The notes beneath the pieces are model-generated. The model worked only from the letters and a program-made list of their open reading frames with translations, did not search any database and had not been told where the DNA came from. A DNA stretch of 64,000 nucleotides, taken from Candidatus Binatia bacterium (lineage in GTDB: Bacteria; Chloroflexota; Dormibacteria; Aeolococcales; Aeolococcaceae). Made by a program: the position numbers and the translations under genes. The stretch spans positions 5,731-69,730 of the forward strand of contig DASPQV010000049.1 in assembly GCA_035624785.1 (NCBI GenBank), read 5' to 3'. Below are positions 49,115 to 63,748 of this stretch, in pieces. Within the stretch, counting starts at the first letter, position 1, and every line of letters begins with the position of its first letter.

Positions 49115-49279
49115 TCAGCGCGTGACCAGCCAGTAGACGACGGCCAGGGGCACGCAGGCGGCCAGGGCCAGGGCGGTGACCAGGCGCCGCCGCGGGCTGG
49201 AGCGGCGGTCGCGCAGCACCGCCGCCACCGCCGCGACCCAGAGCAGGCAGCCGAGCCCGATCAGCAGGTAGCCGAGCAT
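49115..49279 (-). CDS. Small (54 aa) two-TM membrane protein not in the ORF track, PLD-nuclease-N-terminal-domain-like
   Basis: My own translation is MLGYLLIGLGCLLWVAAVAAVLRDRRSSPRRRLVTALALAACVPLAVVYWLVTR*. The ATG shares 1 nt with the threonine dehydratase stop (TGATG). Confidence 0.4.
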   Translation of the reverse strand: MLGYLLIGLGCLLWVAAVAAVLRDRRSSPRRRLVTALALAACVPLAVVYWLVTR

Positions 49280-50250
49280 CAGGAGCTGGCGAGCACCGCA
49301 GCGAGCTGCGCCGGGCTGATGTTGGCGCCGGTGCAGAGCAGGGCCACCCGGCGGCTCTCGAGATGGGGCCGGAGAGCTGGGCTGAGGGCGGCCGCCAGGG
49401 CCGCCGCTCCCGCCGGTTCCACCAGGGTCCGGGTCTTCTCGATCATCAGCCGGGTCGCCCGGAGCAGATCGCCGTCGTCGACCAGCAGGAAGTCGCTGAG
49501 CAGGGTGCGGAGGATTCGCTGGGGGAGGGCGAAGGCAGTGCCAGTCGAGAGCCCCTCGGCGACGGTGGTGTTGGCCCGCTCCACGGCGGCGCCCGCCTCC
49601 CAGGAGTCGTGGGCGGCGCTGGCCTGTGCCGACTGCACGCCGATCACCCGGATTCGCGGGCTGACCGCTCGGGCCACGATGCAGGCGCCCGCCGCCCCGC
49701 TGCCGCCGCCGATGGGAACCACGATGACCTCGACGGTGGGCTGATCCTCGAGCAGCTCCAGGGTGTGGGTGGCGACCCCGGCGATGAGATCGGGTTCGTC
49801 ACCGGAGTGGATGTAGCGGCGACCTCGCTCCGCCGCGAACCGCTCGCACTCCCGGCGGGCTTCGTCGAACTTGCGTCCCGCGAAGACCACCTCGGCGCCG
49901 AGGTCATGCATCGCCTCCACCTTCACGGGGTTGGCGCCCTCGGGGACGAAGACTGTCGCCGGCACCCCGAAGAGGCGGGCCGCGTAGGCGATCGACTGCC
50001 CGTGGTTGCCGGTGGAGGCGGTGGCCACTCCCGCGGCCCTGGTCTGGCCGTCAAGCCGGCTCATCAGGTTGATGCCACCGCGGACCTTGAAGGCTCCGGT
50101 GGGCATGAGGTTCTCGTGCTTGACCCAGACCTCGGCGCCCACCAACTGGTCCAGGCCGGCATAGCGGCGGAGGGGGGTGCGAGGAAGGTGGGCGGAGATC
50201 CGGTTCCGCGCATTGAGAACGTCGACCAGAGTGGGGGGCTGGAGCATCAT
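49279..50250 (-). CDS. Threonine ammonia-lyase / threonine dehydratase (fold-type II PLP, catabolic-size)
   Basis: VKHENLMPTGAFKVRGG (PLP Lys), STGNHGQSIAYAA, and PIGGGSGAAG. I take the start at MMLQPP (50250). The 407-aa track ORF is an extension. Confidence 0.85.
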   Translation of the reverse strand: MMLQPPTLVDVLNARNRISAHLPRTPLRRYAGLDQLVGAEVWVKHENLMPTGAFKVRGGINLMSRLDGQTRAAGVATASTGNHGQSIAYAARLFGVPATVFVPEGANPVKVEAMHDLGAEVVFAGRKFDEARRECERFAAERGRRYIHSGDEPDLIAGVATHTLELLEDQPTVEVIVVPIGGGSGAAGACIVARAVSPRIRVIGVQSAQASAAHDSWEAGAAVERANTTVAEGLSTGTAFALPQRILRTLLSDFLLVDDGDLLRATRLMIEKTRTLVEPAGAAALAAALSPALRPHLESRRVALLCTGANISPAQLAAVLASS

Positions 50251-52804: not shown

Positions 52805-53452
52805 ATGCCGCATCGCAAGCTCTCCGTCCTCGAACCGACCGGCTTCGTCATCCTTCGCGACCACACGGGGCCGTCGATCCCTGCCCAGCAATACCGCAAT
52901 CTGGAGTTCATCGACTGGAAGTCGGGCGGCGACACCAACTTCGCGCCGCTCGCCTCCGCCCTGGGCGAGATGGAGTGCCACGGTTTCTGGGATCACGGCA
53001 AGCCCGACAAGGACGGTGTCTGGACGGCCAACCGGAGGATCGCTCCCTCCCTGGTCAGCTATGTCGAGCAGATCGGAGCTCGCTATGGCCGCGTCCGGGT
53101 CATCGAGCTCAATCCCAGCGACGAGGCCGCCGCGCTGCGGCAGCTGCATCTCGATGACAACAACCGGCTCAACCCGGACGGCGAGGGGTGGGTGGTCCGC
53201 GCCTGGCTGGAGCTCGACGCGCCGGCGGGATCCACCTTCATCCTCCGGGAGAAGCGGGACGATCCCAGCACCGAGACCCGGATCCCGCTCCACCCGGGGC
53301 GCCAGCTGGTCATCGACACCGAGCGCCTCTACCACGTCGTCCACAACCCGGGTCCGGCACCCCGGCACGCCCTGATCACCTCGTTCGAGTCCGGGGACGC
53401 CCTCCAGGCGTGGATCGACAGCGAGCTTCCCGCCGAGGTGGCCGTCCGCTGA
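52805..53452 (+). CDS. Hypothetical protein, possible cupin/2OG-Fe(II)-oxygenase-like fold
   Basis: HxD...H arrangement (QLHLDDNN ... RLYHVVHN). Hand-counted GC in several rows is somewhat lower (60-67%) than in neighbouring genes. The family was not recognised with confidence. Confidence 0.45.
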   Translation: MPHRKLSVLEPTGFVILRDHTGPSIPAQQYRNLEFIDWKSGGDTNFAPLASALGEMECHGFWDHGKPDKDGVWTANRRIAPSLVSYVEQIGARYGRVRVIELNPSDEAAALRQLHLDDNNRLNPDGEGWVVRAWLELDAPAGSTFILREKRDDPSTETRIPLHPGRQLVIDTERLYHVVHNPGPAPRHALITSFESGDALQAWIDSELPAEVAVR

Positions 53453-53454
53453 GC

Positions 53455-53730
53455 TCAGCCGCCGGAGACGGCGGGGGCCACGAACACCTCGGCGCCATCC
53501 CTGACGGGGGTGCTGAGGCAGCCCTCGCCACGCACCCCGGCGCCGTCGACGAACACCAGCACGTGGGGCCGGATCTGGCCGCGCTCGTCGCGCAGCCGGC
53601 GCTCCAGGATGGGCAACCTGGCCGCCAGGTCGTCGAAGACGGCGCCGAGCGTCGAGCCCTGGACCTCGATCTGGGCGGCGCCGTCAGCGAGGGGGCGGAG
53701 CGGGGCCGGGAGCACCAGCCGGGAGCTCAT
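53455..53730 (-). CDS. MoaD/ThiS-family ubiquitin-like (beta-grasp) carrier protein ending in Gly-Gly
   Basis: 91 aa. The C-terminus is ...DGAEVFVAPAVSGG followed by the stop, with a typical MoaD layout (VQGSTLGAVFDDL...VLVFVDG). The ATG overlaps the upstream stop (ATGA). Confidence 0.8.
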   Translation of the reverse strand: MSSRLVLPAPLRPLADGAAQIEVQGSTLGAVFDDLAARLPILERRLRDERGQIRPHVLVFVDGAGVRGEGCLSTPVRDGAEVFVAPAVSGG

Positions 53731-54818
53731 TGAAATTCGGCGGCCCGCACCGAGAGCACATCGGGAAGCCGCTGGGCCACCTGTCCCCAGGACTCACCGC
53801 CGTCCCGGCTCCAGAAGACCTCGCCGATCCGGGTGCCGAAGAAAAGGCCGGCCGGGTCCGCCCAGTCCGTGCACATGGCGTCGCGGAGGACCCCGCCGAG
53901 GTACGGCTCCTCGGGCAGACCCTCGTTGACGGGATGCCAGGTCGCGCCGGCGTCCTGGCTGCGGTACACGCGGCAGCGGGTGTCCGACGGGAGCCTGCCC
54001 TCGCCGAGCGGGAAGGCGAAGACGGTGTCGGGCTGCTGCGGATGGACGACCATCGGGAACCCGAAGTTGCTGGGCAGGCCGGTCTCGATCGCCGTCCACT
54101 CGTCGCCGCCGTCCTCGCTGCGGTAGACGCCGCCGTGGTTCTGGGCAAAGAGCCGGGAGGGACGGTCGGGATGCATGGCCACCTTGTGGACGCACTGCCC
54201 GTACTCCGGGAAGCGGGCATCCTCGGGGGCAAAGCTGACCTCGATGCCGCGGTTCCTGGGATTCCAGGTGGCGCCGCCGTCCTCGGTCCGATAGACGCCC
54301 CCGGTCGACATCGCCACCAGGCACTGGGCGGGATCGGTGGGGTGCGGGATCACGGTGTGCAGGCAGGCACCACCGTTGCCCGGCCTCCACTCCGACCGGT
54401 GGGGATGGTCCCACAGGCCCCGGACCAGCGAGAAGCTCTCGCCGCCGTCATCGGAGCGGAAGAGAGCATGCGGCTCCACCCCGGCATAGACGACCCCCGG
54501 CTGGTTGGGCGGGCCGGGCTGGATCTGCCAGACGCGGGCCAGCGCCGTCTCGGCCTCGGCGGGAAAAGCGATGGCCGCCTGCCGGGACTCCGCCCAGGTG
54601 GCCCCCAGGTCGTCCGAATGGGTGAAGAACGGTCCCCACCAGCCGAACGTGCCGGAGGCGAACAGCCGGGGGGGATCGCAGCGGCTGTCGATGCCGACCG
54701 CGTAGACCTCCTGGTTGGGGAAGCGGAGTTCGTCCAGTGTCCAGGTGCGCCGGGAGTCGTCGCTCCGCGCGATCAGAAGTCCTTTGCGGGTGCCGATCAT
54801 CAGCAGGGCGCGCGCCAT
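53727..54818 (-). CDS. Cytosolic BNR/Asp-box repeat beta-propeller protein (sialidase-fold-like)
   Basis: Six Asp-box-like repeats: SDDLGATW, SDDGGESF, TEDGGATW, SEDGGDEW, SQDAGATW, SRDGGESW. There is no signal peptide. GGAGGGAGG SD before ATG 54816..54818. Confidence 0.75.
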   Translation of the reverse strand: MARALLMIGTRKGLLIARSDDSRRTWTLDELRFPNQEVYAVGIDSRCDPPRLFASGTFGWWGPFFTHSDDLGATWAESRQAAIAFPAEAETALARVWQIQPGPPNQPGVVYAGVEPHALFRSDDGGESFSLVRGLWDHPHRSEWRPGNGGACLHTVIPHPTDPAQCLVAMSTGGVYRTEDGGATWNPRNRGIEVSFAPEDARFPEYGQCVHKVAMHPDRPSRLFAQNHGGVYRSEDGGDEWTAIETGLPSNFGFPMVVHPQQPDTVFAFPLGEGRLPSDTRCRVYRSQDAGATWHPVNEGLPEEPYLGGVLRDAMCTDWADPAGLFFGTRIGEVFWSRDGGESWGQVAQRLPDVLSVRAAEFQ

Positions 54819-54913
54819 GGGCCTCCCTCCGGTCGTGTGTGGGCTTGTCGCGAGTGTAGACGAGGTGCGACCCGGAAACTCATCGCCGGGAACCCGCGGT
54901 GGCGGGCACCCGC

Positions 54914-55786
54914 CTACAGCTCGGCAACCGCCGGGATCACGTCCCGGGCGATGACCTCCAGGGGCTCGACGCGCGAGACGTCCTTGACCGAGCCGTGGGC
55001 GACCGTGAAGCCGCGGCGGTTCAGCTCCCGGAGATCGGCGACGATCTGGGCCGCCCGCTCGCCGCGCTCGCCGGTGTCGAAGTTGTAGAGGACCGTCTTC
55101 TCGATGTCGTCGTAATCCCGGCCCTCGGCCTCGCAGTGCTGGCGCAGGACCTCGAGCTTCCGCTCCAGGTCCGGGCTCGGGAAGAGGTTGCAGGCCTGGG
55201 CGTAGCGCGCCACCAGCCGCAGCGTCTTGCGCTCCCCGGAGCCGCCGATGAGGATCGGCGGGTGAGGCCGGGACAGGGCCTGGGGCGAGTTCAGGGTCCG
55301 GGCCAGCCGGGCGTGGTGTCCGGCGAACGCCCGGTCGTCGCCGCTCCACATCTGCAGGCAGATCTGGAGGGCGTCCTCGAGGTGCTCGAATCTCTCGGCG
55401 ATGGGCGGGAAGAAGAGGCCCAGCCCGGTGGCCTCGTCCTCGTTCCAGGCCGCGCCGATGCCGAGCATCGCCCGGCCGCCGGAGAGGACGTCGAGGGTGG
55501 TGACGATCTTGGCGAGCAGGCCAGGCTGCCGGTAGACGACCCCGGTGACCAGGGTGAGCAGCCGGACCCGCGAGGTGTGAGCGGCAAGGAAGCCGAGGGT
55601 CGTGTACGCCTCCAGCATCTCGTGCTCAGGGGGCCCGACATTGCGGATCTGGAAGAAATGGTCCATGACGCTGAGCCTGTCGAAGCCCGCCGCGTCGGCG
55701 ACCTGGGCGATCCGGGCCAGGTCCGCGCCGAGGGTCGGGGGTCCGCCCGGCCAGGTGAAGTCGGGGAGGTGGAGGCCGAGCTTCAT
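54914..55786 (-). CDS. LLM-class (luciferase-like) F420-dependent oxidoreductase
   Basis: MKLGLHLPDFTWPGG..., RLSVMDHFFQ, and LGIGAAWNEDE are typical of the Rv1855c-like LLM subgroup. The ATG overlaps the upstream stop (ATGA). Confidence 0.8.
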   Translation of the reverse strand: MKLGLHLPDFTWPGGPPTLGADLARIAQVADAAGFDRLSVMDHFFQIRNVGPPEHEMLEAYTTLGFLAAHTSRVRLLTLVTGVVYRQPGLLAKIVTTLDVLSGGRAMLGIGAAWNEDEATGLGLFFPPIAERFEHLEDALQICLQMWSGDDRAFAGHHARLARTLNSPQALSRPHPPILIGGSGERKTLRLVARYAQACNLFPSPDLERKLEVLRQHCEAEGRDYDDIEKTVLYNFDTGERGERAAQIVADLRELNRRGFTVAHGSVKDVSRVEPLEVIARDVIPAVAEL

Positions 55787-56787
55787 GTCAACGGAGCATC
55801 GCTGATCGGGACCGCCGGGCGGGCCATCAGGCGGGCGATCAGGGCGGGGTCGGCGTTGCCACCGGAGAGGACCAGCACCGTCCGGCCGGCGGCGGGGCGA
55901 GGCAGCCGTCCGGTCAGGAAGGCCGCCAGAGGCACCGCCCCCGACGGCTCGACGGCGAGGTGGAGGCGGGTCCACGCGGTCAGCGTCGCCGCCTCGATCT
56001 CCGCCTCGGTGACCGTGACGATCTGGTCGACCAGGCCCCGACCCACGATCACCTCGAATCCGCGCTCGCCGATGCTCAGGCTGCGCAGGCCGTCGGCGAT
56101 GGTCGCGGGCGCGCCGGGCAGGCTCTCGTGCCGGCCGCTGCGCTTGGAGGCGGCGGCGTCGCCGGCCAGCTCGGGCTCGACGCCCACCACCTGGACCTCG
56201 GGCCGGAGGGCTTTGATCGCCAGGGCACACCCCGAGATCAGGCCGCCGCCACCCACTGGGGTCACCAGCATGCCGAGATCGGGCACGTCATCGACCAGCT
56301 CCAGCCCGATCGTGCCCTGGCCGTGGATGACGTCCCAGGAGTCGAAGGGATGGACCAGGGTCAACCCGGTCTCGGCCCGGATCTCGAGGACGCGCTGCTC
56401 CCGGTTGGCCCCGGTGATGCCCTCGCTGATCACCTCCGCGCCCAGCGCTCGCACCGCGGCCATCTTGATGGGGTTGGAGTCCGCGGGCATGACCACCACG
56501 CAGGCCAGCCCCGTGGTTCGCGCGGCCAGCGCCACCGCCTGGCCGTGATTGCCCGAGCTGACCGCGATGACGCCGGCGGGCTGGCGGTCGTGCTCGAGCA
56601 GCGACAGCACGGCGTTGAAAGCGCCCCGCACCTTGAACGACCCGGTGGGCTGAAGCAGCTCCGGCTTGAGGACGAGCTGAGGGGCGAGGTCGGAGCCGGG
56701 GAGCGCCGGCGTGCGCCGGACCCTGGCTGCGATGCGCTCGGCCGCCTTGCGGATGGCCTCGAGATGTCCGGCCGTGAACTCGTCCAC
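55783..56787 (-). CDS. Threonine/serine dehydratase-family fold-type II PLP enzyme (second paralog in the window)
   Basis: LKPELLQPTGSFKVRGAFN (PLP Lys), SSGNHGQAVALAA, and PVGGGGLISG. GTG start. Confidence 0.85.
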   Translation of the reverse strand: MDEFTAGHLEAIRKAAERIAARVRRTPALPGSDLAPQLVLKPELLQPTGSFKVRGAFNAVLSLLEHDRQPAGVIAVSSGNHGQAVALAARTTGLACVVVMPADSNPIKMAAVRALGAEVISEGITGANREQRVLEIRAETGLTLVHPFDSWDVIHGQGTIGLELVDDVPDLGMLVTPVGGGGLISGCALAIKALRPEVQVVGVEPELAGDAAASKRSGRHESLPGAPATIADGLRSLSIGERGFEVIVGRGLVDQIVTVTEAEIEAATLTAWTRLHLAVEPSGAVPLAAFLTGRLPRPAAGRTVLVLSGGNADPALIARLMARPAVPISDAPLT

Positions 56788-56854
56788 GTGAGCAACCTCC
56801 CTCTGAGCGGGGTCCCGACCGAGCCTGCTCGGTGGGTGAAGTGAAGGACGTCAT

Positions 56855-57856
56855 TCATCCGATCAGCTCGCTGAGGTCGCCGTTGGCGGCCTCTCTCGCG
56901 GCTCCCAGGAGGGGCAGGCCGAAGGCCTCCTCGATGGTCCTCAGGGTGCCGAAATGGTCGCCGGATTTGGCTACGGTGCCTCGCCCGCGGTCGGGGGCGG
57001 AGATCACCACCATGGGGACCCGCCCTCCCGCCGCGTCACCGCAGCAGGATCCGGAGCCGTCGGCGTCGTTCTCGTCCATGGTGACGATCACTGTGCCACC
57101 GTCGGTGAACCAGGCGGAGCCGAGGACGCCCGAGAGGTTGGCGCGGAGCCAGGCGTCCCCCCGCTGGATGCTGGCGCTGTGCATGTCGTCCACGACGTTG
57201 GGGGTGATCCAGACGAAGTCGGGAGCTCCGGCCGAGCCGAGGGCTGCGACCAGCCCGGAGGGTCCCGGGTAGGGCTGGACCGCGGTGGTGCAGCCCCGGC
57301 CGGTGACGTCGCTGAAGAGGACGAATGGGTCGTGCTGGCGGTAGTAGTCGCCGCTGCCGAAGCCCGTGTAGCAGGCGGAGGGCATCGACTCCATGTAGGC
57401 GACCCAGGGGATGCCGGCGGCCGTCATCTGCCCGCCGAGATCCGGGGCGGTGTAGGGTCCGGCGCAGCCGTCACCGCTGCAGCCCTGGTCGGATCCCGAC
57501 ACCAGGTCGAGGTAATTCGGCAGCGACGGGTGCTCGATGGCGTACCAGCCGGTCACCGACACGTACTCGGCCGCCAGCGAGCACAGGTAGGGGTCGGGCG
57601 ATCCGTTGCCGCACTCGCCCAGCGTCGCCTGGTAGCCGACGTTCTCCTCGATCACCAGCAGGATGTGCGGTCGGGCGGCGGGGGCGGTGGCGACGGGAAC
57701 GCTTGGCGAGGACGGCGCGGGGGTGGCGGGCGGCCGGCCGGCAGTCGTCGAGGGGGGAGTGGGAGCGGGGGGACGGGTTGCGGCGGAGCCCGAGCCGCAG
57801 CCGCCCAGAGCGGTCATCGCCACCGCGAGCACCGCTCTGGCGCACCAAGGCCTCAC
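56855..57856 (-). CDS. Phosphoesterase-family lipoprotein (acid phosphatase / phospholipase C superfamily)
   Basis: Lipobox LGGCGS and a Pro/Thr-rich linker. Motifs: ILLVIEEN, HPSLPNYL, ITPNVVDDMH, VTMDEND. Confidence 0.65.
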   Translation of the reverse strand: MRPWCARAVLAVAMTALGGCGSGSAATRPPAPTPPSTTAGRPPATPAPSSPSVPVATAPAARPHILLVIEENVGYQATLGECGNGSPDPYLCSLAAEYVSVTGWYAIEHPSLPNYLDLVSGSDQGCSGDGCAGPYTAPDLGGQMTAAGIPWVAYMESMPSACYTGFGSGDYYRQHDPFVLFSDVTGRGCTTAVQPYPGPSGLVAALGSAGAPDFVWITPNVVDDMHSASIQRGDAWLRANLSGVLGSAWFTDGGTVIVTMDENDADGSGSCCGDAAGGRVPMVVISAPDRGRGTVAKSGDHFGTLRTIEEAFGLPLLGAAREAANGDLSELIG

Positions 57857-58679: not shown

Positions 58680-59228
58680 GTGCAGGCAGTCATGGAGAGG
58701 GAGGCTCCAGGGAGATTGACCGACGACCCGGGGGCGGCGTTCGTGGGTGCTCTGTGGCTGGAGCACGGCGATGCCCTGCTCGGCCACGTCCGCCGGCGGG
58801 TCGGCGACCCCGGCCGCGCCGAGGACATCGTTCAGGAGGTCATGGTCCGGGCCTGGCGCCACGCTGGCCGCCTGGACGTGCACACCCGATCGCTTCGGCC
58901 CTGGCTATTCAGGGTTGCCGACAACCTGGCGACCGACCAGCATCGGGCGCGGCTGGCTCGGCCCCCGGAGGTCGGCGGGCTGGCCGTCGACCTGCAGACG
59001 GGCGGGGAGGACATCGACCGGGCAGTGGAGGCCCTCGACGTCGCCGGAGCCATCGCCAGCCTGAGCCCGGAGCACCAGGCGGTGCTCACCGAGACCTACT
59101 ACAGGGGGCGGACGGTCGCCGAGGCTGCCGCCGCCCTCGGCATCCCCGCGGGGACGGTCAAGTCGCGCACCTACTACGCGCTCCGGGCCCTGCGGGTGGC
59201 ATTGGAGGAACGTGGATGGCAGCCGTGA
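58680..59228 (+). CDS. ECF sigma factor
   Basis: Region 2 (AEDIVQEVMVRAWRHA, RPWLFRVADNLATDQHR) and region 4 (LSPEHQAVLTETYYRGRTVAEAAAALGIPAGTVKSRTYYALRALR). Confidence 0.85.
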   Translation: MQAVMEREAPGRLTDDPGAAFVGALWLEHGDALLGHVRRRVGDPGRAEDIVQEVMVRAWRHAGRLDVHTRSLRPWLFRVADNLATDQHRARLARPPEVGGLAVDLQTGGEDIDRAVEALDVAGAIASLSPEHQAVLTETYYRGRTVAEAAAALGIPAGTVKSRTYYALRALRVALEERGWQP

Positions 59229-59935
59229 GCGACCCCTGCGAGGGAGTGCGGATCGCCCTCGGCGCCTACCTGCTCGAGGCCCTGGATCCGGCCGAGGCCG
59301 TGGAGGTGCGGAGCCACCTTGCGGGTTGCGCCGCGTGCCGCGATGAGCTGGCGCTGCTCGCGCCCCTGCCCGGGGTGCTGAGCCGGCTCGGAGCCCGCGG
59401 CTCCCTGGCCATGCCGGCTCCGGCCGTCCCACCGCCCGTTCCCAGCGCGCCTCCCGGGCTCCTGGAGCGGACCGTGGCTGAGATCGGGCGGCGGCGCCGC
59501 AGCCTCCGTCTGCGTCTCCGCATCGCCGCCGGGTTCGGCGCGCTCACCCTGGCGGGTGCGGGGGTGGCCGCCGGCTTCCTGATCGCCGGCCACGTCAACG
59601 CTCCGCCGCCGGCGCAGGTGGCCGCCGTGCACGCGTCGGGAACCAACCCCGCCAACGGGGTGAGGGTGACCGCCGACGTCTTCCGAGAGGACTGGGGCAG
59701 CTCCATCCACCTCACCGTCTCCGGGGTGAAGCCGGGGGACGACTGCCAGCTCTGGGCGGTCGGCCGCAGCGGGGCCCAGCAGGAGCTGGGAAGCTGGCGG
59801 GTCGGCTACGAGGGCTGGGCCACAGTGGACGGCGCCACCGACATGCCGGCCGCGCAGATCTCCACCCTGAAGGTGGTGACCAGCTCGGGCAGCAACCTGA
59901 TGACGCTCGCCCTGCCTTCTGCCGCATCCTCATAG
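59216..59935 (+). CDS. Anti-sigma factor: zf-HC2 N-terminus, one TM segment, RskA-like extracytoplasmic domain
   Basis: [11 protein letters not shown] (H-x3-C-x2-C), TM segment [22 protein letters not shown], and C-terminal CQLWAV...GSW, which resembles the anti-sigma-K C-terminal domain. It overlaps the sigma gene by 13 nt. GGAGGAA SD. Confidence 0.8.
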
Positions 59936-59936
59936 G

Positions 59937-61349
59937 GTGCAGGACGCCGTCGTCGTCGGCGCCGGGCCCAACGGCCTGGCAGCGGCGATCACCCTCGCCC
60001 AGCGGGGCTGGGGAGTCCATGTCGTCGAGGCCGCGGAGCGGGTGGGCGGCGGCTGCCGGACCGCGGAGCTCACCCTGCCCGGGTTCCGCCACGACATCTG
60101 CTCGACGGTCGACGCTTTCGGCACGCTCTCGCCCTTCCTCACCGGCCTGGACCTCGGGGCACTTGGGGTGGAGTGGGTCCACCCGCCGGCTCCCCTGGCT
60201 CACGCCTTCTCCGACCGGCCGGCCACGATCGTTGAGCGCGACATCAGCGCCACCGCCGCCGGCCTCGGCCCCGACTACCACCGGTACGCGGGGATCCTCG
60301 GCCCGCTGGTCCACGGCCACCGCGCCTTCGCCGACACGGTGCTTGGCCCCCTGGTCCGGGTGCCCCGGCACCCGCTCTTCATGGCGGGCTTCGGCCGCTA
60401 CGCTGCCCTGCCGGCGACGCTCCTCTCCCGGCTGTTCGCGGCCCAGGGGACGCGGGCGCTGATCGGGGGCGCCGCGGCCCATTCGATCGCGCCGCTGAGC
60501 CAGCCCCTGACCGGGGCAGCCGCGCTCATCATGCTGGGCACCGCGCACGGCAGCGGCTGGCCGGTGGTGCGAGGCGGGTCACAGGTGCTCGCCGACGCCC
60601 TTGCCGCCCGGTTGGGCGAGCTGGGAGGGACGATCGAGACCGGGCGCACGGTCCGGCGGATGAGCGACCTGCCCGACGCCCGCGCCTACCTCTTCGACCT
60701 CTCGCCCTGGCAGCTGGCCGCGATCTGCGCCGACGACCTCCCGACCGGCTACCTGCGCCGACTGCGGCGATACCGGCGTGGGCCGGGCGTCTTCAAGCTC
60801 GACTATGCGCTCTCCGGCCCCATCCCCTGGCGGGATCCGGCCTGCCTGAGGGCCGGGACGGTGCACGTGGGCGGGCTCTTCGAGGACGTCGCCCGCTCCG
60901 AGGCGGCGGTGGCCGCCGGGCGGGTCTCGGAGAGGCCCTTCCTGCTCGTCGTCCAGGCCTCCCTCTTCGACCCCACCCGGGCGCCCGAGGGGCGGCACAC
61001 CGCCTGGGTCTACTGCCACGTACCCAACGGCTTCGACCTCGACATCTCGGAGCGGATCGAGCGAAGGCTCGAGGAGCACGCGCCGGGCTTCCGCGACCTG
61101 GTCCTGGAACGGCGGGCGATGAACGCCGCCCAGATGGAGGCTCACAACCCCAACTGCGCCGGCGGAGACATCGCCGGGGGCCGCAACACCGTCCGGCAGA
61201 TCGTGCTTCGCCCGGTGCCCAGCCTCAATCCCTACGCCACCCCGAACCCGCGGATCTTCATCTGCTCGGCGTCGACGCCGCCCGGGGGAGGGGTGCATGG
61301 CATGTGCGGCTACCACGCTGCCCATGCCGTGCTCCGGCGCCGCCCCTGA
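59937..61349 (+). CDS. FAD/NAD(P)-dependent oxidoreductase of the phytoene-desaturase (CrtI-like) family
   Basis: [17 protein letters not shown] dinucleotide motif, and a C-terminal [10 protein letters not shown] motif typical of the family. GTG start 1 nt after the anti-sigma stop. Confidence 0.75.
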
Positions 61350-61444
61350 CAGGAGCGAAGCCGGCGTAGTCATCGGCAATGCTCCGCGGCTTGCTCCACA
61401 CTTGCGGCGGGCTGGGGCTCGTGAGTTGACAGGCAGGTGGGGCG

Positions 61445-63748
61445 ATGGCTGACGACGAGCCGGTGAAGGATCCCGGACGCAGCCGGTGGCGCGCTCCCCC
61501 CGGGGCACCGCTGGGTGGGGATAGCTCCGGCGGCCGCCGGATCGACCGCCGGTCGCTGCTGGCCGCCGCCGTCCTGGCCGCGGCGGTGGCTGCCGGCGGG
61601 ACGCTGATGGCGCTCGCGCTCAGGCCACCGACTCCCGCCCCGTCCACGGTTCGGGAGGTCCCCGGTCAGCCGGCGCCCCGTGAGGGGGCGGCGATGGCGT
61701 ACGACCCAGCCACCAAGAGCGTGCTCATGTACGGCGGTGATGACGGCACCACGGTGTTCGGTGATACCTGGAGCTGGGATGGGTCAGCCTGGTCCGCGCT
61801 GCATCCGGATCCAGCACCACCACCGCTCACCGGGGCGGTGATCGGCTACGACCCGGCCTCCCGCCAGCTGGTGATGACCGGGGGCAGCACCGGCTACGTC
61901 GAGACCACGGCCATGAGCGACACCTGGACCTGGGACGGGCGCCTCTGGTGGCCCGCGGTCGAGCCCACGCCCTCGCCGGGCCCGGTGACGGTGGCCACCG
62001 ATGACGCCACCGGACAGCTCCTCCTGGTATCCGGGCTCGACGGCGACTGCCAGGGGATGCAGACGTGGGTGTGGCGCTCGGCCGCATGGCAGCGGCTCAC
62101 CTCGGAGGCCTCGCCGGGGCCGACCAGCGGGGCCCTGCTGGTCTACGACCCGGCCGCCCGGGACCTCCTCCTCTACGCAACCTCGGCCCCGGGCTGCCCC
62201 GGTCAGGGTCAGGACTTTCCCACGACCTCCGCCTGGAGCTGGGACGGCACCAGCTGGGACCCGATCCCGAGCGCCGGCTCGGAGGGCTCGGCGAGCGGCG
62301 CCGCCCTGGTCGGTTCGGGCCAGGTGATCGACTCCACCGGCGGTGCGCTGCTCATCGGATCGTCGCGGACCTACCGGTGGGACCACGGCGGCTGGACCGA
62401 GCTCGGCGCCGCGCCCGCCGGCCTGGGGCGGCTGACCTCCTCGAGTGCCTCGGCCCGCTGCCAGGAGGCGCTCGCCTATGACGCGAGCCGCCATCAGGTC
62501 GTGCTCTTCGGGGGCCGGTTCGCGGCTGGCCTCGGTGACGACTACCTGGCCGACACCTGGACTTTCGCGGGCCAGTGGAGGCTCGCCAGGATGGGCACGG
62601 TCCTGGGCTGGACACCGACACCGGCGCCAAGCCCCTGCACCGCGATGGCCGAGGGGCCGGGGACCGGCCTCGGGGAAAGCGTCTACTCGCTGCACATGGA
62701 GAGCGCCACGACGGGCTGGGCTCTCGACTCCGCCGGGTCGATCGTGCACACCACGTCGGCCGCCGGCCGATGGTCGGTGAGCTCGCCGCCGCTGCCGCCG
62801 GGGGCCCAGGTGGTTGCGGCGGCCTTCCTGGATGGGAGCACCGCTCGCGCTCTCACCGGGTCGCCGGCCACCTGCGAGCCTGGAACCGCCCCGGCGCCGG
62901 GTCCGCTCCAGGCCTGGGCGACCGGTGACGGGGGAAGGAGCTGGACCGCCGAGGGCACCCTGACCGCCGCGTACGTCTACGGCTCCCTCGACTTCGTGGA
63001 CCCTGAGCACGGCTGGTTCATCGATCTGCGCTGCGAAGGCCCCTCCAGCTGCTGGTCGACGGTCCTCTTCCGGACCACCGACGCCGGGGCCACCTGGCAG
63101 CAGGTGGCGACCTCAGCGCTGGGGAAGGTCGGCCCGGCGGGCCGCCTGCCGGCGGGGCTCGACCAGCCGGTCAGCTTCAGCGACCCGAGCACCGGCTGGA
63201 TCGCCGGAGACCAGGCTGGGGTGAGCCCCAACCTCTTCGTGAGCCACGACGGCGGCGCCTCCTGGTCGGCCCAGCCACTGCCCTCGACCGCGACGCCCCC
63301 CGAGGGCGGCGCCGAAACGCCGGTCTTCTGGTCCAGCCAGGACGGGGCGGTGCTGGCCTCCAGCGGCGGCGGTGAGGGGGGATCCGCCCTGTACATCACC
63401 TCCGACGGGGGCTGCCGCTGGATCGAGCGGAACCTGCCCGACGACGGCCTGGTCCCCGATGCCATCGACTTCATCGACTCCGCCACCGGCTGGCTGCTGG
63501 CCGAGGCGGCCAGCGCGGGCCCGGGCGGAGCCCAGATCCCGCCCTACGGCCTGTGGGTCACCCGCGACGGGGGTGAGACCTGGGCTCGGGTGTGGACCGG
63601 CGGCTCGCTGGGGTTCTCGGAGATCGACTTCGTGACCGCCCAGCTGGGTTGGGCCGTCACCTACGACGAGAACGGGCTCGCCGGGCTGGTGCGCACCGCT
63701 GACGGCGGAACGACCTGGACACCGGTGCCCATCCTCATCAGCGGCTGA
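61445..63748 (+). CDS. Membrane-anchored protein: N-terminal Kelch-type repeats plus a C-terminal BNR/Asp-box module paralogous to 17262..18746
   Basis: TM segment LLAAAVLAAAVAAGG. Kelch-like repeats include MAYDPATKSVLMYGG...DTWSWDG, IGYDPASRQLVMTGG...DTWTWDG and LVYDPAARDLLLY...WSWDG. Then come TGDGGRSW, TTDAGATW, SHDGGASW, TSDGGCRW, TRDGGETW and TADGGTTW. Confidence 0.7.
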   Translation: MADDEPVKDPGRSRWRAPPGAPLGGDSSGGRRIDRRSLLAAAVLAAAVAAGGTLMALALRPPTPAPSTVREVPGQPAPREGAAMAYDPATKSVLMYGGDDGTTVFGDTWSWDGSAWSALHPDPAPPPLTGAVIGYDPASRQLVMTGGSTGYVETTAMSDTWTWDGRLWWPAVEPTPSPGPVTVATDDATGQLLLVSGLDGDCQGMQTWVWRSAAWQRLTSEASPGPTSGALLVYDPAARDLLLYATSAPGCPGQGQDFPTTSAWSWDGTSWDPIPSAGSEGSASGAALVGSGQVIDSTGGALLIGSSRTYRWDHGGWTELGAAPAGLGRLTSSSASARCQEALAYDASRHQVVLFGGRFAAGLGDDYLADTWTFAGQWRLARMGTVLGWTPTPAPSPCTAMAEGPGTGLGESVYSLHMESATTGWALDSAGSIVHTTSAAGRWSVSSPPLPPGAQVVAAAFLDGSTARALTGSPATCEPGTAPAPGPLQAWATGDGGRSWTAEGTLTAAYVYGSLDFVDPEHGWFIDLRCEGPSSCWSTVLFRTTDAGATWQQVATSALGKVGPAGRLPAGLDQPVSFSDPSTGWIAGDQAGVSPNLFVSHDGGASWSAQPLPSTATPPEGGAETPVFWSSQDGAVLASSGGGEGGSALYITSDGGCRWIERNLPDDGLVPDAIDFIDSATGWLLAEAASAGPGGAQIPPYGLWVTRDGGETWARVWTGGSLGFSEIDFVTAQLGWAVTYDENGLAGLVRTADGGTTWTPVPILISG

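Follow-up and report, generated by a model that had tools for sequence, protein, structure and literature searches.

A conserved bacterial gene pair joins a MoaD/ThiS-family carrier to a seven-bladed Asp-box propeller and probably constitutes a sulfur-carrier system whose dedicated partner has no precedent

Sulfur-carrier proteins are prokaryotic relatives of ubiquitin, and to our knowledge each known carrier has a defined acceptor, be it MoaE, ThiG, CysM, TtuA, BexX or one of a few others. What does such a carrier serve when its gene is coupled to that of a β-propeller? This question is raised by a locus in a 64,000-nucleotide stretch of DNA from a Candidatus Binatia bacterium (contig DASPQV010000049.1), the whole of which is hereafter called the window. 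On its minus strand, a gene for an Asp-box propeller overlaps a gene for a small β-grasp carrier that ends in Gly-Gly (GG). An earlier reading of the DNA made from its letters and open reading frames (the sequence-only reading) had proposed this pair as a candidate new system, set in a four-gene locus. We found that the propeller and the carrier form a two-gene cassette, which is translated as a coupled pair and conserved in a dozen or more bacterial phyla. The pair is probably a sulfur-carrier system with a dedicated partner that has no precedent.

The carrier gene (53455..53730, minus strand) encodes a 91-residue protein with the C-terminus ...APAVSGG. Its assignment as a GG-ended β-grasp protein in the sequence-only reading was borne out by both sequence profiles and structure prediction. 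The protein matches the Pfam family ThiS (PF02597) with 33.4 bits against a cutoff of 22.5, which places it in the MoaD/ThiS superfamily, and its best sequence match in the PDB is CysO (3dwg_C, E 1.7e-11, 36% identity). The AlphaFold2 (AF2) model, predicted from a 49-sequence alignment, has a predicted local distance difference test (pLDDT) score of 93.7 and a disordered tail, with a value of 39 at the last residue, G91. Foldseek aligned this model to CysO with a template modelling (TM) score of 0.87, to SAMP1 with 0.81 and to E. coli MoaD with 0.67, the other top matches being Amycolatopsis CysO, a Thermus MoaD-related protein and Urm1. Among 134 carrier orthologues, the GG is exactly C-terminal in 126, and residues L11, P40, R45, D48, E49 and R54 are conserved at 95% or more. 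A few carriers run one to five residues past the GG (GGA, GGV, GGQ, GGDLAR), and two are without GG.

The closer affiliation of the carrier was sought among the named families. The best NCBIfam match is SAMP1 (NF041918), at 52.4 bits against a cutoff of 60, and the archaeal-type MoaD model TIGR01687 gave 33 bits against 49.5, which leaves the protein outside MoaD in the strict sense. As for CysO, neither a CysM-type nor a JAB gene was found among the conserved or immediate neighbours. The carrier belongs to the MoaD/ThiS superfamily yet falls outside the specific MoaD, CysO and SAMP1 assignments. Two variants of the C-terminus were also seen. Nonomuraea carriers at two loci (L074 and L078) end ...VLPALA with no Gly-Gly, so that the usual C-terminal activation is not possible. 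In Catelliglobosispora koreensis (L059), the carrier frame downstream of the propeller, open for 226 residues, reads through the GG into a 4HBT (PaaI-type) thioesterase domain.

The propeller gene (53727..54818, minus strand) encodes a cytosolic protein of 363 residues. Its start, MARALLMIGTRKG, leads directly into the first β-strand (residues 3–10 of the AF2 model), and the protein therefore has no signal peptide, as had been read from the sequence. Six Asp-boxes had been claimed; we counted seven Asp-box-like motifs, at residues 19–26 (degenerate), 68–75, 122–129, 178–185, 234–241, 287–294 and 337–344, in line with the seven-bladed structure of PDB 3b7f. The protein matches 3b7f with an E value of 2.2e-60 over residues 4–360, and the AF2 model (pLDDT 91.9) superimposes on it with a TM score of 0.91. 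It is thus a member of the YP_299179.1/3b7f family. The 3b7f entry comes from structural genomics, and a 2009 survey of Asp-box propellers described it as seven-bladed, with an open tunnel of 9 × 11 Å, in a functionally uncharacterised family (PMC2716378). Two scans yielded at least 574 and at least 590 confirmed propeller loci, and a profile run against 1.84 billion representative proteins returned 3,759 clusters (50% identity) at E ≤ 1e-30, a number that includes multi-repeat GH74-like proteins.

Assignments to better-known propeller families did not hold. No NCBIfam model reached its cutoff for the propeller, and the BNR-type models likewise stayed below theirs. For a sialidase, GH33 or GH74 enzyme, BNR_2 gave 24.3 bits against 31.4 and the F510_1955 glycosylhydrolase model 70 against 175, and the protein has no signal peptide. 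For Ycf48/HCF136, PSII_BNR gave 20.8 bits against 27 in Pfam and 24 against 326 in NCBIfam. Distant structural matches comprise GH74 glycosidases, Ycf48, DAIP and sortilin; those to GH74 had Foldseek TM scores of 0.3–0.6, in a comparison confined to the fold.

Sequence comparison revealed a dense set of conserved polar residues. H154, H211, Q226, H228, R275 and R312 are invariant in all 161 propeller orthologues, which fall into two clades about 35–40% identical to each other, and for T10, K12, D44, E77, N189, R233 and D318 the number with the conserved residue is 159 or higher. No cysteine is universally conserved among the 161 propellers. Judged from the topology, the conserved residues probably sit at the starts of innermost strands or in the loops between strands 2 and 3, and would thus surround the tunnel on the side of the propeller opposite to the Asp-boxes.

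To see how firmly the carrier and the propeller are linked, three sets of 80 loci were collected from one-genome-per-species contigs, with the window propeller, 3b7f and the carrier alignment as queries; many of these loci come from metagenome bins, and their taxonomic labels may be wrong. The window propeller retrieved 79 loci with a full-length propeller, from a clade of Actinobacteria, Chloroflexi and Dormibacterota, and in 52 of them a carrier gene comes directly after it. In the second clade, fetched with 3b7f, the carrier lies downstream in 78 of 79 loci, which come from Proteobacteria, Acidobacteriota, Nitrospirota, Planctomycetota, Bacteroidota and several candidate phyla. The gene of the crystallised 3b7f protein itself (L086) is followed by a carrier gene whose product ends ...ALAGG. 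Overall, a carrier-family open reading frame (ORF) adjoins the propeller in 130 of 158 related loci, as against 1 of 80 control loci fetched with a neighbouring oxidoreductase gene, so the adjacency is not due to chance. Reciprocally, 79 of the 80 loci fetched with the carrier query have a propeller no more than 3 kb away, the lone exception being cut off by a contig end; this carrier subfamily is therefore dedicated to the propeller. The expectation that the pair would be syntenic in related genomes thus held, and it did so across phyla.

The coupling of the two genes is equally well preserved. In the window, the stop codon of the propeller (TGA) and the start codon of the carrier (ATG) share bases in an ATGA overlap (53727..53730, minus strand), an arrangement that recurs in Dormibacterota loci. 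In 101 of 133 pairs, no more than 30 nucleotides in either direction lie between the propeller stop and the carrier start, which upheld the proposed translational coupling. Pairwise identities of the two proteins correlate with r = 0.88, a value inflated by shared phylogeny. An apparent propeller–carrier fusion at one locus (L007) was traced to a run of N in the sequence and discarded as an artefact. In 10 loci without a carrier, all apparently from Nocardioidaceae-like lineages, the gene right after the propeller encodes a DUF4442 hotdog protein; a link of the system to hotdog thioesterases was set aside, since these loci of one lineage group and the single carrier–4HBT fusion form too narrow a base.

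This linkage bears directly on whether the carrier might be a housekeeping MoaD or CysO that happens to lie next to a propeller. The reciprocal 79 of 80 rules out an incidental neighbour. Moreover, MoaE, MoaA, MoaC and CysM-type genes were neighbours in none of the loci and MoeA in only one, and the TIGR01687 score speaks against a housekeeping carrier as well. No canonical moaE, CysM or ThiG gene is a conserved neighbour of the pair, in agreement with the sequence-only reading.

Natural fusions were found among those single-propeller matches of the profile search that had extra length. Two independent proteins, P0258 and P0276, are carrier–linker–propeller fusions that keep ...AVSGG or ...AISGG at the junction, followed by linkers of only 8–13 residues. 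P0276 lies on a 1.49-Mb contig that was seen in two samples. Since the propeller chain starts with its innermost strand (PMC2716378), the GG of these fusions would be tethered near the central tunnel. Fusions of this kind have precedents, as ThiS–ThiG and MoaD–MoaE fusions join a carrier to its functional partner or acceptor enzyme (PMC1779556); the MoaD–MoaE fusion MoaX is reported to require cleavage for activity (PMC4326299). A third fusion, P0242 (L249:1050-3453, 704 residues), joins a Hanks-type Ser/Thr kinase to the propeller, with a gene for a 93-residue ThiS protein beginning 8 nucleotides later. The kinase appears to be active, as its HRD, DFG and VAIK motifs are present, and this suggests that the pair may be wired into phosphorylation signalling in some organisms. 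P0242 is the sole kinase fusion seen and lies on a 5-kb contig. The P0276 gene (L250:1272-7362) stands downstream of, and on the same strand as, genes for a CoxS/CoxL/CoxM-like molybdenum hydroxylase and a DUF1326 protein, as at no other locus. A Mo-bisPGD (molybdenum bis-pyranopterin guanine dinucleotide) enzyme is encoded nearby in 8 of 80 loci, mostly of Amycolatopsis, which looks like lineage synteny. A general link to molybdoenzymes was rejected on these grounds, the Cox genes being confined to P0276.

The junctions raise the question of whether the propeller could be a hydrolase that acts on the carrier C-terminus, in a function analogous to that of the JAMM protease Mec, whether by freeing a product or adduct or by cutting after the GG. 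The fusions, together with the carriers ending in GGA, GGV, GGQ or GGDLAR and the GG–4HBT protein, would need cleavage after the GG; the three invariant histidines and the acidic residues could hold a catalytic metal, and no JAMM gene is linked to the pair. Against this, the GG is already the very end of 126 of the 134 carriers, which leaves nothing to be processed, and neither a hydrolase motif nor a match to a hydrolase family was found in Pfam or NCBIfam. We regard such an activity as quite improbable.

A carrier of this kind would be expected to be activated by an adenylating enzyme (E1), and the sequence-only reading had stressed that the window holds no E1, synthase or protease partner. 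E. coli MoeB, MoaE, MoaA, MoaC and MoeA as phmmer queries gave no match in the six-frame translation of the whole window, and Pfam annotation of the 10 kb on either side revealed no ThiF, MoaE, JAB or rhodanese domain. The claim thus stands throughout the window for MoeB and MoaE, and for a JAMM protease within those 10 kb, to which the search for it extended. The absence of an E1 is no anomaly, though it had been taken for one, since in actinomycetes a single unlinked MoeZ acts in trans for several carriers (PMC5925218) and some lineages place the E1 in the cassette. In five loci (L145, L150, L160, L163 and L164), all from Steroidobacteraceae and related Gammaproteobacteria, a ThiF+Rhodanese E1 of the MoeZ type directly follows the carrier and yields a three-gene cassette; at L145, a TPR gene on the opposite strand separates the carrier–E1 pair from the propeller.

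The rhodanese domain of this E1, which marks the sulfur-transfer form, also weighs against ubiquitin-like conjugation of the SAMP, Urm1 or TtuB type, in which the carrier would be attached to target lysines with the propeller as adaptor or main target. Such conjugation would accord with SAMP1 being the best, if sub-threshold, NCBIfam match (52.4 vs 60 bits) and with the high rank of SAMP1 and Urm1 among the structural matches. Eukaryotic ubiquitin ligases use propellers as substrate receptors. In one Acidimicrobiales locus (L016:3229-11417), the pair lies between pafC and tatA-tatC-helY, a region that flanks the Pup-proteasome genes in actinobacteria, and the carrier extends past its GG (GGDLAR); as a single case near the usual position of those genes, this locus counts for conjugation to that extent. 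Conserved neighbours coding for an E2, an E3 or a JAMM protease were absent from the neighbour census, the search for JAMM being limited to this census and the annotation of the 10-kb flanks, and no PADLOC match was obtained. Conjugation as the role of the pair appears improbable.

Given these observations, we tentatively favour, at somewhat less than even confidence, a model in which the carrier is a thiocarboxylate carrier served by an E1 in trans and the propeller is its cognate acceptor. The GG C-terminus of the carrier would first be adenylated and converted to a thiocarboxylate by an E1-rhodanese of the MoeZ/MoeB type, usually encoded elsewhere in the genome and occasionally immediately downstream. 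The two proteins would form a physical complex, in which the flexible GG tail docks at the mouth of the central tunnel of the propeller. There, H154, H211, H228, Q226, R275 and R312, together with K12, D44, E77, N189 and D318, would make up the functional site. The propeller would finally transfer the thiocarboxylate sulfur to a substrate, in a role like that of MoaE, ThiG/BexX or CysM. The rhodanese domain of the E1, the kinship with CysO, the strictly terminal GG and the precedent of carrier–acceptor fusions support thiocarboxylate chemistry, and the same four points cast the propeller as the cognate partner of the carrier; the dense cluster of invariant polar residues favours catalysis by the propeller. 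A bolder version, in which the propeller represents a new class of thiocarboxylate-dependent sulfur-transfer enzyme that makes a thio-metabolite or a sulfurated cofactor with its own carrier, is somewhat less probable, and we put it forward with corresponding reserve.

Several observations weigh against the propeller being a thiocarboxylate acceptor. We know of no β-propeller that acts as one. No conserved neighbour in the census hints at a substrate or a product, and the carrier–propeller complex is proposed from gene arrangement and single-protein models. In the carrier–propeller fusions, the GG is not free unless it is cleaved. In 27 of the 79 loci of the window clade, the propeller has its invariant residues intact with no carrier within 6 kb, and it can therefore work without a linked carrier. 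Residue 60 (window positions 54639-54641) is His in 154 of 161 orthologues and Trp in the window propeller; Trp also occurs in L001, L014, L043 and L049, and Phe in L033 and L075, and no covariation of W60 with positions 259 and 326 was detected. Furthermore, the closest structural relatives outside GH74, namely Ycf48, sortilin and DAIP, are binders and not enzymes, and the kinase–propeller fusion resembles a sensor-domain architecture.

The last two points lead to a different role for the propeller, that of a non-catalytic receptor, chaperone or sensor that binds the carrier tail via its Arg/His patch. As a receptor or sensor, it may tell the carboxylate from the thiocarboxylate, and its task would be to protect, store or deliver the carrier or to signal the state it is in, for instance as a measure of sulfur status. 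The Ycf48- and sortilin-like relatives and the kinase fusion favour tail binding, as these relatives bind partner proteins instead of catalysing; the Arg patch of Ycf48 binds carboxylate residues of D1 and holds its C-terminal tail (PMC10403576). The titles of PDB entries name sortilin with neurotensin and progranulin peptides, and DAIP with a C-terminal thermolysin fragment. In P0242, the propeller takes the C-terminal position of a kinase sensor domain, with the carrier gene 8 nucleotides on, and two invariant arginines of the family would suit the binding of a carboxylate. On the other side, 13 invariant or near-invariant polar residues, including three His, one Lys and three acidic ones, exceed what tail binding usually needs; the documented fusions of carriers to partners involve acceptor enzymes, and the kinase fusion is a single case on a 5-kb contig. 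On balance, a purely binding propeller seems to us doubtful, though by no means negligible.

Comparison with the known systems places the proposed acceptor pair closest to CysO–CysM of Mycobacterium tuberculosis, which works with Mec and MoeZ. CysO is the nearest relative of the carrier and matches it in length and in its GG end; in both cases the carrier gene adjoins the gene of its partner, and the MoeZ E1 is encoded elsewhere. They differ in that the partner here is a seven-bladed propeller and not a pyridoxal 5'-phosphate (PLP)-dependent sulfhydrylase, and in that no Mec/JAMM gene is linked; the PLP enzyme encoded nearby in the window is of the dehydratase type and is not conserved with the pair. 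In MoaD–MoaE, too, a small GG carrier gene abuts the acceptor gene, often with overlapping stop and start codons, and in natural fusions of the MoaX type the GG is retained where the two parts meet, just as in P0258 and P0276. Nevertheless, the propeller has no detectable similarity to MoaE, genes for the molybdenum cofactor are not neighbours, and the carrier scores below the MoaD model cutoff. In ThiS–ThiG and BexX–CysO, a thiocarboxylate carrier likewise passes sulfur to a dedicated acceptor enzyme, BexX depending on carriers of primary metabolism and on MoeZ (PMC5925218). The invariant K12 and arginines of the propeller would, speculatively, allow a ThiG/BexX-like chemistry, although ThiG and BexX are TIM barrels with known substrates and the partner here has a propeller fold. 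SAMP1, Urm1 and TtuB share with the carrier the β-grasp fold, the GG end and, for SAMP1, a score near the threshold; unlike them, the pair has no linked conjugation machinery, and its lineages are bacterial.

On the side of the propeller, YP_299179.1 (3b7f) from Cupriavidus pinatubonensis JMP134 belongs to the same family, with seven blades and an open tunnel; it represents the other clade, and the 2009 survey gives no partner for it (PMC2716378). Ycf48/HCF136, the sortilin Vps10 domain and DAIP have a related Asp-box architecture (Foldseek E 1e-8 to 1e-10) and bind peptides or proteins. They reach TM scores of 0.5–0.6 only and are lumenal or extracellular without a β-grasp partner, and the PSII_BNR model lies below its cutoff for the window protein.

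How much of the surrounding locus belongs to the system? The four same-strand genes described by the sequence-only reading were recovered by ORFs, by the sequence and by independent gene calls of the source contig, an 82-kb metagenome contig in ENA, in which all four genes are identical. Upstream of the propeller, a gap of 95 nucleotides (54819..54913) contains a strong Shine–Dalgarno sequence, GGAGGGAGG (54822..54830), 3 nucleotides 5' of the propeller ATG. Beyond the gap lie the gene of an F420-dependent luciferase-like monooxygenase-type (LLM) oxidoreductase (54914..55786), which was used to fetch the control loci, and that of a fold-type II PLP enzyme resembling serine/threonine dehydratases (55783..56787), both on the minus strand and joined by a second ATGA stop/start overlap (55783-55786). 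Both overlaps and the gap are as originally read. The LLM protein belongs to TIGR03560, the Rv1855c type (306.9 bits, cutoff 231.4). The PLP enzyme matches Pfam PALP with 230.5 bits and no NCBIfam equivalog at cutoff, the CysM model giving 56 bits against 413, so it is of the dehydratase type.

A single pathway of PLP enzyme, LLM oxidoreductase, propeller and carrier would fit the common strand and close spacing in the window, and the closest relative (L001) has all four genes in the same arrangement. The synteny counts largely refute it. Of 80 propeller loci and 80 LLM loci, one each has the LLM and PLP genes next to the pair, the one among the LLM loci being from the same genome as L001; the PLP gene adjoins the LLM gene in 4 of 80 LLM loci, the four closest relatives only. 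Contrary to the earlier framing, the four-gene locus is therefore not a unit, and the LLM and PLP genes accompany each other in those four relatives only; both are unrelated neighbours of the pair. We consider a four-gene pathway, or a housekeeping carrier with an incidental propeller, scarcely credible. The census of immediate neighbours (140 ORFs, 81 dereplicated loci) yielded 152 Pfam families, of which the commonest, MFS_1, occurred in 5, and neighbour clusters from BLAST comprised at most 21 of 80 loci and followed taxonomy.

Other features of the region were recorded as well. A pattern scan of 53300-57000, the 95-nucleotide gap included, found no σ70-like promoter or intrinsic terminator, and an Rfam scan of the window and seven loci returned tRNAs alone, with no family in the gap. 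A conserved upstream motif was rejected, as k-mer counts in 155 upstream regions retrieved only lineage-specific coding remnants. Convergent to the carrier, a 215-residue ORF (52805-53452, plus strand) reaches, with its stop codon, to 2 nucleotides from the carrier gene's end; it has no Pfam, NCBIfam or PADLOC match and a homologue in the same position (85% identity) only in L001. A defence system was rejected, since neither the carrier nor the propeller nor this ORF matched PADLOC. A second PLP serine/threonine-dehydratase-like gene (about 49279-50250, minus strand; 323 residues, PALP 252 bits) lies 6.5 kb from the first, with a 54-residue ORF and a malic-enzyme gene beyond it. At about 58692-63748 on the plus strand, genes for an extracytoplasmic function (ECF) sigma factor, a zf-HC2 anti-sigma factor, an amine-oxidase-like flavoprotein and a 767-residue protein follow one another; the last has Kelch and Sortilin/BNR-type repeats and is a second, much larger propeller in the window.

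The sequence-only reading took the pair to be uncharacterised, and indeed no description of it was found in the searchable open-access literature or in NCBIfam. No paper in that literature names MoaD together with BNR, or links a propeller with a thiocarboxylate carrier, and the propeller–carrier neighbourhood is absent from two comparative surveys of prokaryotic β-grasp proteins. The cassette adds a carrier subfamily tied almost exclusively to one partner, whose fold has no known role in sulfur-carrier chemistry. The crystal structure of one family member, 3b7f, dates from 2007 and still lacks an assigned function, and the carrier partner gives this orphan structure a testable hypothesis, for which Cupriavidus, Amycolatopsis, Kribbella and Nocardia offer culturable hosts. 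The pair points to a sulfur-containing product not yet known, or to a new way of reading the state of a carrier. Should the propeller indeed be a sulfur-transfer enzyme, its fold would join MoaE, ThiG/BexX, the PLP sulfhydrylases and the PP-loop enzymes as a new type of acceptor, and a thio-metabolite or sulfurated cofactor would be made by its means in bacteria of soil and fresh water from a dozen or more phyla.

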